Origin: Saccostrea echinata
Lineage: Eukaryota
Reading direction: 5' to 3'
NCBI RefSeq assembly: GCF_033153115.1
Contig: NW_026889779.1
Coordinates: forward strand, 27,900,001 to 27,964,000
Length of the DNA: 64,000 nucleotides
Shown here: one piece after another, positions 10,001 to 15,337 of the stretch
Layout: each line of letters opens with the position of its first letter
How positions within the stretch are numbered: the first letter of the stretch is position 1
Notes under the pieces: model-generated
What the model was told of the DNA's origin: nothing
Seen by the model: only the letters and a program-made list of their open reading frames with translations
Databases searched by the model: none
Program-made: the position numbers and the translations under genes

Positions 10001-13000
10001 TGTGGCATCTTACACAAGAAAATGTGCCCGTCTCAGGGATAAAGGTAAAATAACAGCTGTCACCTGTAACATCAATAAAGGTAACCTTCAGGATAAAGGT
10101 AAAATAACAGCTGTCACCTGTAACATCAATAAAGGTAACCTTCAGGATAAAGGTAAAATAACAGCTGTTGCCTGTAACATCAATAAAGGTAACCTTCAGG
10201 ATAAAGGTAAAATAACAGCTGTCACCTGTAACATCAATAAAGGTAACCTTCAGGATAAAGGTAAAATAACAGCTGTTGCCTGTAACATCAATAAAGGTAA
10301 CCTTCAGGATAAAGGTAAAATAACAGCTGTTTCCTGTAACATCAATAAAGGTAACCTTCAGGATAAAGGTAAAATAACACCTGTAACATTAATAAAGGTA
10401 ACCTTCAGGATAAAGGTAAAATAACAGCTGTCACCTGTAACATCAATAAAGGTAACCTTCAGGATAAAGGTAAAATAACAGCTGTTGCCTGTAACATCAA
10501 TAAAGGTAACCTTCAGGATAAAGGTAAAATAACAGCTGTCACCTGTAACATCAATAAAGGTAACCTTCAGGATAAAGGTAAAATAACAGCTGTTGCCTGT
10601 AACATCAATAAAGGTAACCTTCAGGATAAAGGTAAAATAACAGCTGTTTCCTGTAACATCAATAAAGGTAACCTTCAGGATAAAGGTAAAATAACACCTG
10701 TAACATTAATAAAGGTAACCTTCAGGATAAAGGTAAAATAACAGCTGTTGCCTGTAACATCAATAAAGGTAACCTTCAGGATAAAGGTAAAATAACACCT
10801 GTAACATTAATAAAGGTAACCTTCAGGATAAAGGTAAAATAACAGCTGTTGCCTGTAACATCAATAAAGGTAACCTTCAGGATAAAGGTAAAATAACACC
10901 TGTAACATTAATAAAGGTAACCTTCAGGATAAAGGTAAAATAACAGCTGTTTCCTGTAACATTAATAAAGGTAACCTTCAGGATAAAGGTAAAATAACAG
11001 CTGTTGCCTGTAACATTAATAAAGGTAACCTTCAGGATAAAGGTAAAATAACAGCTGTTGCCTGTAACATTAATAAAGGTAACCTTCAGGATAAAGGTAA
11101 AATAACAGCTGTTGCCTGTAACATTAATAAAGGTAACCTTCAGGATAAAGGTAAAATAACAGCAGAAACATAAAGGTAGCTTTTAGGATTCAGGTTAAAA
11201 TAACAGCTGTCATATCAATAAAGGTAGCCTTCAGAATAAAGTAATTAAAATAGCAGCTGTAGCATCATGAAGGGAGGCTTTGAGATAAAGTTAATTATAG
11301 CAGCTGTAGCATCATGAAGGGAGGCTTTGAGATAAAGTTAATTATAGCAGCTGTAGCATTATGAAGGGAGGCTTTGAGATAAAGTTAATTATAGCAGCTG
11401 TAATAACAGTAAAGGTAGCTTTTAAGATAAAGGTAAAATACCTTCTGATGTGTCTGTGAAGGAAGCATTAGGGACAAATATTCATGTATGTAGTCTTGAC
11501 TATAAAGTTAGATTCAAGAATAAAGGTAATATGCTGCAAGTTTTACTTCATTCAAACCCCTCTTCACTTGTTTCTGTACTGCAGCAGCAGTTTTTAGTGA
11601 ATTGCTTAAATAATGTTTATGTCTCCCAACTGATTCAATATCCAAGAGCATTTTCTGAGTACAATCAATTTATAAACTGGAGCAAGTTACCGACAAATAA
11701 GTTGATATTACAAGGATTTGAAAAGCCCTATTTAAAGTCAGTTTTTTGCATATTCTACAGTTGTTATATTTACCTTGTTTGTAAATACAACCTATCAGTT
11801 CACTGGGTCATATTTTGTCTGACATGTTTGATACCATTTGTAAGGTTATTGCTTTTATACTAAATTTGACTACAGGGTACTACAATATACTCCGCATACC
11901 TGATCAATACATAGGGCTCACGGTGAATTTAACATGGAGTGCTTACTCATTCTGACACCTAAACCCACCTGGTGTTTCCAGGGGTCCATGTTTGTGCCCT
12001 GTTCATTTTGTTTACTGGATTCATGAGATTGGTCACTGCTTGAGATCTTCACATTTTACATAAGATTTAAAGTATAATCAGTCACTGTTATATGTGTAAA
12101 GAAAGTCTCAAGGTTTAAAGTAAAATATTAATAATTATATCTGTCAATGTTAGACTATCTGCATTCTGAAAGTGTTTTAATGAAGGACAATAAATGTCTC
12201 TCCTTCAGATGTCTTAAACTTTCTGAATGCCAAAGTCAAGGTTATCAAAACGATCTAATAATCTAAAGGTCAAGGTCAAGAGAGGATCAAGATGGTTTAC
12301 ACTGTCTTATTGTCTTTAATACCAAAAATCACTTGTATATTTGAATTTTAGAACAATATGAAAGATTCTTGCCTGAAAATGGTTGTAATAGAAAAACAGA
12401 ATTGAGCTTTAAACAGTGTTTGTTCCTTCAGTGAAGGCATACCATAAAGTAGTGACAGTTAAGATTTCCCAAAAAAGAAATGAAAACAGTTCTAGCTGTA
12501 ATTTTCCTTACTCAGTGCTGCCTCTCTGAGTGACACATAAGAAGATTTGGTGTACGTGTGACACTAGATATTGTTCTGTATAATAGAAGGACACTAAACA
12601 TTCAAGTGTAATTTTGCTTTACTATAGGTGATCAGATAGCAAAGGACTTGGTGGATTATACAGATGCTGAGACCCATAACCCAAGCATGGTCAGGTCATT
12701 GTCAGAGTTTGCTTCCAATCTGTCTTCAGTGCAGGACTACAGACAAGCTCAGGTAAAGATAGGTGACATTGTCTTATTACATGACTGTAAACAAGCCCAG
12801 GTACAGATAGATGACATTGTCTTAATATGCGACTGTAAACAAGCTCAGGTTCAGATAGGTTACATTGTCTTGTTACATTACTGTAAACAAGCTCAGGATC
12901 AGATAGGTTACATTGTCTTATTACATTACTGTAAACAAGCTCAGGTTCTGTTCAGATAGGTTACATTGTCTTATTACATTACTGTAAACAAGCTCAGGTT

Positions 13001-15337
13001 CAGATAGGTTACATTGTCTTATTACACTACTGTAAACAAGCTCAGGTTCAGATAGGTTACATTGTCTTATTACACTACTGTAAACAAGCTCAGGTTCAGA
13101 TAGGTTACATTGTCTTATTACATTACTGTAAACAAGCTCAGGTTCAGATAGGTTACATTGTCTTATTACAAGACCATAAACAAGCCCAGGTACATAGATA
13201 GGTGACTGTAAACAAGCTCAATTATAAATAGGTGACTTTCTCTTATTACGTGACTGTAAACAAGCTCAAGTATCTGTATCTGAGCTTGTTTAAAATCTTG
13301 TAAGCAGACAATGTACAGATAGGTTACTTTAAACAAGCTCAGGTGACTGTCTTATTACATGACTGTAAACAAGCTCAGGTATAGTAAAATAACATTATTT
13401 TATTATTAGACTACAGACAAGGTCAGGTATACCGATGGATAGACGACATCGTCACATGGTGCATCAAAGGAATCATATCCACTTTTAATACTTGAACCAG
13501 ATTTTATGGGGTTCTTTTTTCAGTTAAACCAGATTTTAGTGTGTGTTGAAATCAAATTATGGTCCAAAGAGGACAGCGTATGTTAATTTATGTACAGGTA
13601 TAAATGGTTATATCATGACATTAAAATGTGTAATTTTTCAATGTAGGTAACAAGACTGGAAGCCAAAGTTCTGACACCTCTCGCAAATTACGGACTAAAA
13701 TGTAAACAAGCCAAAAATGATATTAAGGAAGGAATGAAAACACAAGAACTAGAAGTCACTCAGCGTAAGAAGTTAGACAGACTGCGGCAGAAAGCACCTG
13801 CTAACAGAGCCCAGCTGACAATGGCGGAGACAGAGCTACAGAAGGCCAGTGTTAAAGCATCAGCTGTCACAAAAAGTCTAGAACAGCTGATCGATAAATT
13901 TGAAGAGGAGAAATTAAAAGATTTAAAGGTATATGGGAGAGGAACAGCATATGCACTGTATTATTCATAGCAAAACAACATGTTAATACTGAACGAGAGA
14001 TCATTGTACAGCGTATTGATTTAAATTTATTACACAGTGTTTTTAATTATCATTCATTCCCTACACAATCTGAATAATTAAAGTGTTTCATATGTATATC
14101 ATGAATATACTTGTAGTAGAAATGCAGTGATTTTATGCTCAAAATTATGAAATAATTCATTCTTGCTTCATATTATTCAACAGAAAGTTTTGACAGACTT
14201 TGTCAACATTGAGATGATCTACCATGCCAAAGCTCTAGAAATGTACACAGAGTGTTTTCAGAACATTAAATCATTTGATTTGGATGAAGATATAGAGGTA
14301 TGTCATTGTTAAACGAGTGAAATGTTTTTTTCCAAAGCCCATTTGAGGCTCAAGTAGGATTCATGGACCAAAGTTTGTCTATTGTCAATCTGTTGTGTAT
14401 TTGTTAAATTTTCTTAATTTTGTAATACTTCAGAATAACTGGATGCAGCTTCATCCAAACTTACCACAAAGTGTCTTTGTAAGAAGGGAATTTTAAATTT
14501 GTTCAAATGAAGGGCCACATTTCATTAACATTAAGTAATCTTATATTCATTACTAGTACTCTGTTTAATTTTTATTTTAATTCATTAGGAATTTAGGTCC
14601 AAAATGCAGCCATCCAATTCTGCCAACCGAATGAACATGGTAAGGTCCTCCTCTTACACCTCCCTGGAGTCAGCTGAGGACCGACATCCACCGTCCAGTA
14701 TTCGACGACAACAGTCTGCCCCTGCCAGTCGTAATGTCACCCCCACCAAGTCAGCCAGCACAAGTGCCTCACCTCTCAAAGCCACTGTGGACTCCAGGGT
14801 ACACCCATATTATGCTCATTTCAAATTTCTCACATTTTAAAATCCTTCAAACTGCAAACCATTGAGATCAGTTTTAATATAACAAGGAGTGAAGAGACTT
14901 TTTAATTTTAGTTACATTTTCCAGTTTGACTGTAGAGTTTTATGAAAAACTTAAAATAAATAGAACAAATTGAAAATTTCAGCTTGAAATCCATGACAGT
15001 CATTTTATTCTATTAATTAAATCATCTATTGAATGTCCTCTAATATCAGACATATGGAAAAAAAATAAATGCATTTTGTACACTCACAATGCAATCTGAA
15101 ATTCCCGATTTTCAGAATGGTTTGGATGATGATGAAACTGAGGAAGATGAAGATGATGAAGAAGAATCTGATGAGGATGATGATGATGAAGACGATGATG
15201 ATGATGAATACACAGAGACAGAAACAGCTCGTACAGAGACAGCTAGATCCACTGCACGGACAGACAAACCATCAGGCCAATCAGAAAAGACTGTAATTCG
15301 GCCGCCCTCTAGTCTGATAAAGAAGGTATCCCAGTGA
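7022..15337 (+). CDS. CIBAR1: FAM92/CIBAR BAR-domain ciliogenesis protein with Ser-rich and acidic C-terminal tail
   Basis: Exons 7022-7053, 9929-10044 (VERHFGQLCDDVASYTRKCARLRDK), 12628-12752 (VQDYRQAQ), 13647-13928 (RLEAKVLTPL...AETELQKA), 14184-14297 (IEMIYHAKALEMY), 14589-14798, 15116-15337. Matches remembered FAM92A motifs (KTARLRDKAD, LQDYRQAEVERLEAKV). Confidence 0.9.
10038..11440 (+). repeat. 54-bp minisatellite (about 21 units, some 47-bp variants, degenerate tail) starting at the FAM92 exon 2 donor
   Basis: Unit GATAAAG|GTAAAATAACAGCTGTCACCTGTAACATCAATAAAGGTAACCTTCAG; copies at 10038, 10092 and onward; clean to ~11163. Confidence 0.97.
11870..12060 (+). mobile_element. Degenerate 3' fragment related to the retroelement at 21770-22640
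   Basis: Shares the ...TGCTTACTC...ACCT..CCCACCT... tail seen at 22560-22600. Confidence 0.45.
12735..13430 (+). repeat. 48-bp minisatellite starting at the FAM92 exon 3 donor
   Basis: Unit ACAAGCTCAG|GTTCAGATAGGTTACATTGTCTTATTACATTACTGTAA; period 48 (12961 and 13009). The last copy GACTACAGACAAGGTCAGGT (~13410) mirrors the true exon end. Confidence 0.95.

Follow-up and report, generated by a model that had tools for sequence, protein, structure and literature searches.

Minisatellites straddling splice junctions in the oyster Saccostrea echinata: an array at the exon 4 donor of a FAM92/CIBAR gene and an excess of such arrays in dynein and myosin genes

Minisatellites whose repeat unit lies across an exon-intron boundary have been described in lancelets as "mirages," in Adh3, the globin genes BflGb6 and BflGb9, and troponin C (Ebner et al., 2010; PMC3087553). 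The passages on mirages report arrays at both exon boundaries, normal splicing, length instability, and exclusion of the array edges from homogenisation, with units of 10-72 bp in Adh3, and call their origin unclear (PMC3087553). In lancelet PGBD5, two different units of 60 and 108 bp are reported beside the 5′ splice sites of the consecutive exons 3 and 4 (PMC3902484). In humans, intron 7 of F7 carries a 37-bp variable number tandem repeat (VNTR) whose first unit spans the donor and is followed by identical pseudo-donors, and the upstream-most donor alone is described as used in F7, LMNB2, and PDGF (Borensztajn et al., 2006; PMC1557585). Here, a 48-bp array at the exon 4 donor of a FAM92/CIBAR gene is described in the oyster Saccostrea echinata, together with a count of similar arrays in two gene families of the same genome. 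The window, the whole stretch of DNA that was analysed, comprises 64,000 nt (assembly GCF_033153115.1, contig NW_026889779.1, forward-strand positions 27,900,001 to 27,964,000), and positions at the FAM92 locus are those of the window.

The exon 4 array (array B) belongs to the known mirage or F7-type splice-junction minisatellites. As in mirages, its unit is repeated head to tail across the boundary, many of the intronic copies carry the splice signal, splicing in the assembled contigs takes place at the authentic site, and the edges are excluded from homogenisation. The original prediction treated such arrays as not known to be an established system, but the kind had already been described. 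Tandem Repeats Finder (TRF) reports array B at 12743-13191 (period 48, 9.2 copies, 90% matches, score 699), and cutting at the motif ACAAG yields 15 copies as far as 13430. Ten units are 48 bp long, units of 53, 32, 73, and 36 bp occur once each, and a partial copy terminates the array. The unit begins 18 nt inside exon 4 and consists of 18 exon and 30 intron bases, with GT retained in 12 of the 14 extra copies; it therefore copies the exon end plus GT, as had been predicted. The outermost copy had also been named correctly as the best match to the true exon end, agreeing at 17 of 18 bases against 14-15 of 18 in the 13 inner copies, which are nearly identical to one another. A homogenised core (~12839-13179) is followed by a decayed tail (13180-13430). 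The predicted in-frame KQAQ...IVLL repeats hold for the opening ~4 units (68 codons) and no further: the frame is lost in the 53-bp unit, and the reading then ends at a stop at 12957. Of the four units of odd size, only that of 36 bp is a multiple of 3, those of 53, 32, and 73 bp being none. An inverted copy of the unit lies within the 73-bp unit, overlapped by a weak minus-strand match in the genome search (13280-13315, E 0.24), and this 22-nt inversion is, judging from its sequence, likely a template-switch scar. Under the Rogers model of intron gain by tandem duplication, cited in PMC3087553, the intron would be new and built from duplicated exon. The mRNA junction of exons 4 and 5 reads CAG/GTAAC, a proto-splice site, but the 30 intron nucleotides of the unit match exon 5 in their first 4 bases only, and ~215 nt of unique DNA lie at the 3′ side of the intron.

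A second donor-straddling array (array A) is seeded by the end of exon 3. Its copies and the true site have an identical 9-nt donor and equal scores, its unit is a multiple of 3, and its reading is open for 126 codons; the joint between exons 3 and 4 is based here on annotated proteins. At its far end, a 47-bp sub-array (11250-11436), some copies of which are without the donor GT, gives the impression that the 54-bp unit diverged and was then amplified anew. Similarity between the 48-bp and 54-bp units is not above that of shuffled sequences (P = 0.38), in agreement with the claim that the two arrays are unrelated. In searches of the 923-Mb genome that skipped very common words, all 7 matches of the array B unit and all 10 of the array A unit lay at their own places, and a dispersed satellite borne by mobile elements was thus rejected as an origin. 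No second copy of the array B locus was found in this genome or among 594 metagenome candidates.

Use of the array B donors was followed in assembled contigs from four runs, whose RNA status is the tool's guess and whose contigs are spliced. In 4/4 runs, contigs over 13200-15400 enter exon 5 directly from the authentic exon 4 end (12752), and none covers 13200-13643. On a scale set by 903 true donors, the score of the uniform core copies of array B lies at the 5th percentile and that of the real exon 4 site at the 73rd. The repeat peptides of the FAM92 arrays occur in 0/8 oyster FAM92 proteins. An RNA hairpin masking the copies at the array B junction was not found, the fold there being neither unusual nor stable (z +1.63). 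A coding VNTR or alternative-donor array was rejected on the contigs, which use the first donor only, and on the proteins, and the same results told against selection for coding read-through as a form of the earlier suggestion that selection keeps such arrays.

The frequency of such arrays was surveyed in the same genome, where 17 genes for dynein heavy chains and 24 myosin loci were located, with exons defined by a spliced protein-to-DNA aligner. Of 1349 predicted introns, 427 failed a fixed alignment filter and 922 passed; exclusion of one gene (m14, 19 good introns) as the second copy of another myosin gene (m13) left 903 introns in 40 genes. Loci of ABC transporters and P-type ATPases were left out, as there were no proteins to define their exons. 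Contigs C81, C132, and C19 entered the second-copy comparison only. Two of three extra dynein stretches were excluded, and inclusion of the third (913 introns) left the count reported below at 26/57. Local arrays were counted at a period of at least 20 and at least 3 copies, arrays matching other loci were set aside, and masking covered only repeats seen twice in the fetched DNA. For the null, each array was collapsed to one unit and placed uniformly over the tolerated positions.

The 57 local arrays comprise 16 that straddle a donor, 10 that straddle an acceptor, and 31 within introns. The 26 junction-straddling arrays compare with 9.6 expected under the pooled null (2.7x) and 7.5 under the gene-conditional null (3.5x); 0 of 200,000 or 1,000,000 simulations reached this number, and a gene bootstrap gave 2.6-4.2x. 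The excess is seen in dyneins (12/22 vs. 4.5 expected), in myosins (11/24 vs. 3.3), and in a count restricted to strict junctions (18/38 vs. 6.7). A TRF-free test with 20-mers found 13/886 donors and 11/891 acceptors, where GC-matched expectations are 5.8 and 5.5 (24 vs. 11.25 in total; 2.1x, p = 6e-4). GC content accounts for ~1.3-1.4x of the excess, leaving ~2x after GC matching. By copy number, the excess is 1.9x for fewer than 3 copies, 2.7x for at least 3, and 3.45x for at least 5. In intron DNA 50-200 nt from junctions, the rate is below that of the far interior. The comparison with random placement put forward by the original prediction thus reveals an excess in the surveyed genes that is real, amounts to 2-3.5x, and is found at donors and acceptors.

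The features that would mark an amplifier acting on 5′ splice sites, as originally proposed, did not emerge. Among junction arrays there is no bias between donors and acceptors (16 vs. 10, p = 0.33). The fraction of the unit that derives from the exon varies between 0.09 and 0.96 with a uniform distribution (Kolmogorov-Smirnov p = 0.61), and therefore breakpoints have no set position relative to the splice site. The anticipated bias toward units that are multiples of 3 (3n) is absent, with 5/35, or 6/38 under a looser junction test, both under one third. For 6/38, p = 0.024 against one third and Fisher p = 0.10 against interior arrays (20/62); depletion relative to interior arrays was stronger in the earlier, stricter set (p = 0.004), and in-frame, stop-free junction units number 2 against 4.4 expected (p = 0.17), so that depletion of 3n junction arrays is a hint only. 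Copied splice signals are mostly retained: of the donors, 12 are unchanged in strength, 3 weaker, and 1 stronger, and of the acceptors, 5, 2, and 3, respectively. Selective weakening of the copied sites was not found. Junction arrays cluster by gene (P = 0.003), together with interior arrays (rho 0.60), and 1/666 adjacent donor pairs in the survey has arrays at both donors, against 0.21 expected under independence. The two consecutive exons, read earlier as pointing to a mechanism, thus require no special coupling, and the two neighbouring FAM92 arrays likely reflect an array-rich gene. A splicing-coupled amplifier is without positive support.

Some myosin and dynein loci stand out individually. 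A myosin V-like gene present in two copies with 98% exon identity (C5:765001-795000 and C36:1790001-1810000) is among the most array-rich genes seen, its copies having several junction arrays in common that differ in copy number. Another myosin gene (C9:8077001-8097000) has 5 junction arrays of at least 3 copies in 16 well-defined introns; two donors in succession are affected, and in one intron both ends bear an array. At C4:11130001-11150000, a 32-bp array that starts at a myosin donor is present in a single intron as two blocks with ~1.2 kb between them, a layout suggestive of an insertion into the array. On C40 (~6884900-6885300), a 37-bp array extends across the two ends of a small exon predicted in a dynein gene, for which the junction calls are of low confidence.

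Array B is probably a local minisatellite that arose by tandem duplication of DNA, whose first donor is used and which has been kept because exon-anchored arrays are harder to delete. Slippage or template-switch repair would first have duplicated 48 bp over the exon 4 junction, with which the inverted 22-nt scar agrees. In the runs examined, the upstream-most donor is chosen, presumably by the mechanism of the human F7 study, leaving the extra copies intronic and near neutral; with splicing at the outermost site, a chance tandem duplication across a junction would be tolerated. Unequal exchange may then have expanded and homogenised the middle copies of array B, and the last copy would match the exon best because such exchange spares both edges. 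The non-GC part of the junction excess likely reflects protection from deletion, as a deletion starting upstream of an anchored array would damage the exon. Introns of this genome turn over fast: when four genes were compared with their second copies, at 98-99.5% exon identity, 128 introns held 98 insertion/deletion (indel) events of at least 15 nt, many of them inside arrays, and other junction arrays differ in copy number between second copies (for example, 10.9 vs. 3.9 and 11.3 vs. 4.1). Survival also accords with an excess that increases with copy number. In a toy deletion model with observed indel sizes, 3-4x fewer positions remove a junction array than an interior array, although the polarity of these indels is not known and contraction by whole units is left out of the model.

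These simplifications weigh against survival of anchored arrays as the explanation, as do several other points. Arrays of fewer than 3 copies are also mildly enriched at junctions (9/26 vs. 4.7, p = 0.03), which may indicate a higher birth rate there and not only longer survival. Contigs lose rare isoforms, and low-level use of array B copies is possible. Donor motifs in the copies diverge no more than the remainder of the unit (2/140 vs. 32/646, p = 0.067). In the two FAM92 arrays alike, the unit is 3n and the first unit open, a combination found in 1/23 surveyed donor arrays; this is given little weight because that feature was part of the reason for choosing the pair. Finally, the survey represents two gene families, not the whole genome.

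The alternative that survives best places mutational hot spots, at which tandem duplication or expansion is favoured, at the exon-intron borders on both sides of exons, owing to polymerase pausing, R-loops, nucleosome or methylation borders, or meiotic breaks. Such hot spots are considered unlikely as the cause. They would accommodate the ~2x excess left after GC matching, the 20-mers in at least 2 copies at 26/886 donors (2.9%) against 1.3% in controls, and the limitation of the excess to the DNA within roughly a single unit length from the junction, where bins hold few arrays. However, breakpoints are not fixed to the splice site and donors and acceptors are symmetric, the excess climbs with copy number as persistence predicts, and the toy deletion model yields 3-4x by itself. 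The second-copy comparisons contain too few fresh duplications to gauge the birth rate. A wider proposal, equally doubtful, is that oyster exon borders breed minisatellites through a transcription- or chromatin-linked ~2x rise over GC-matched intron DNA at both ends, with selection purging in-frame arrays. If true, ~3% of introns would harbour a permanent but rapidly changing reserve of additional splice sites on which intron sliding and gain could draw.

It is quite improbable that the junction excess is an artefact of the assembly or of the null model, through gene choice or unflagged mobile DNA that inflates intron length. The limited masking and the restriction to two gene families leave some room for this, but the excess persists in both families and in pooled, gene-conditional, strict-junction, 8-nt-margin, and TRF-free tests, the array rate 50-200 nt from junctions is lower, not higher, than in the far interior, and second copies of a myosin gene have the same arrays with different copy numbers. 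Least credible of all, and very improbable, is that selection keeps array B as in-frame alternative donors adding 16-residue repeats to the BAR domain, or as a means of tuning output via read-through decay: the 48-bp core unit with its first 4 units open in frame, the likewise 3n and open array A, and the GT kept in 12/14 copies speak for it, but the exclusive use of the first donor in 4/4 runs, the absence of the peptide from all eight proteins, the low scores of the core copies, the break of frame at unit 5, the 3n units in 6/38 other junction arrays, and the lack of a stable RNA fold speak against it.

FAM92/CIBAR is a cilia gene, and the copy in the window is intact (Table 1). Protein P0391 (389 aa, database label Saccostrea echinata) aligns without gaps over eight exons from 7022 to 15334 in a spliced alignment, with 100% identity over the query exon, and Pfam PF06730 matches four exons on the plus strand. 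The match of exon 4 alone (E 8.3e-5) is just under the cut-off; the other support for this exon comes from the P0391 alignment and the loose ends of RNA contigs. The exon bearing array B, originally numbered exon 3, becomes exon 4 in this model, as a 69-nt exon (7888-7956) had been overlooked. The latter is missing in one C. gigas isoform (P0393) and is probably alternatively spliced.

Table 1. Positions of the FAM92/CIBAR gene and its donor-straddling arrays within the window.
Feature	Position	Strand	Basis and remarks
FAM92/CIBAR coding span, 8 exons, 389 aa, intact	7022..15337	+	P0391 alignment without insertion or deletion
FAM92 exon 3, end seeds array A	9929..10044	+	Pfam E 2.4e-11; P0391 spliced alignment
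Array A, donor-straddling minisatellite with 21.4 copies of a 54-bp (some 47-bp) unit, decays to ~11440	10037..11163	+	TRF; motif splitting
FAM92/CIBAR exon 4; last 18 nt are exon part of unit 1; true donor after 12752	12628..12752	+	PF06730 positions 53-92
Array B, 48-bp donor-straddling minisatellite, 15 donor-like copies	12735..13430	+	TRF; ACAAG splitting
Inverted copy of array B unit, 20/22 bases, within 73-bp unit	13271..13292	-	Read from sequence
Array B terminal copy, donor-like site 13426	13409..13428	+	17/18 identical to true exon end; use not seen
FAM92 exon 5, spliced to first donor at 12752	13647..13928	+	Pfam E 4.5e-21; contig loose ends 4/4 runs; P0391 alignment

Elsewhere in the window, arrays with units of 146-168 bp occur at 22966-23364, 28362-28748, 29992-30467, 37073-37536, 41103-42873, and 54725-55284. 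Array families with these periods are met again in many introns of dynein and myosin genes, and the window arrays are likely satellites borne by mobile elements. Two small contigs of the assembly (C175 and C266) contain several uninterrupted ABC-transporter domains close together and are probably bacterial contamination.

Junction arrays provide natural tests of the choice of first donor and last acceptor outside mammals, can mislead gene annotation, and, in a compact-intron, highly polymorphic bivalve, make birth bias and survival bias directly testable. A genome-wide count of junction-straddling minisatellites was not found in the literature, although most subscription journals and supplements were outside the search and one may exist. 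Like array B, F7 has a first unit that spans the donor and uses the upstream-most donor; 6-16 and CBS also use two proximal copies, which contigs could miss for array B, and the F7 scanning mechanism was shown in mammalian cells, not molluscs (PMC1557585). The PGBD5 units resemble the FAM92 arrays in being both multiples of 3 and in lying at consecutive exons, but differ in having 2-7 imperfect copies, and the authors had no transcript over the region (PMC3902484). In comparison with the lancelet mirages, for which the passages on them give no frequency, the present case is in a bivalve and is counted against a null (PMC3087553). Within this known class of repeats the FAM92 locus is unremarkable, and the value lies in the count: 26/903 introns carry a junction-straddling array of at least 3 copies, 2-3.5x the random expectation, at both exon ends.

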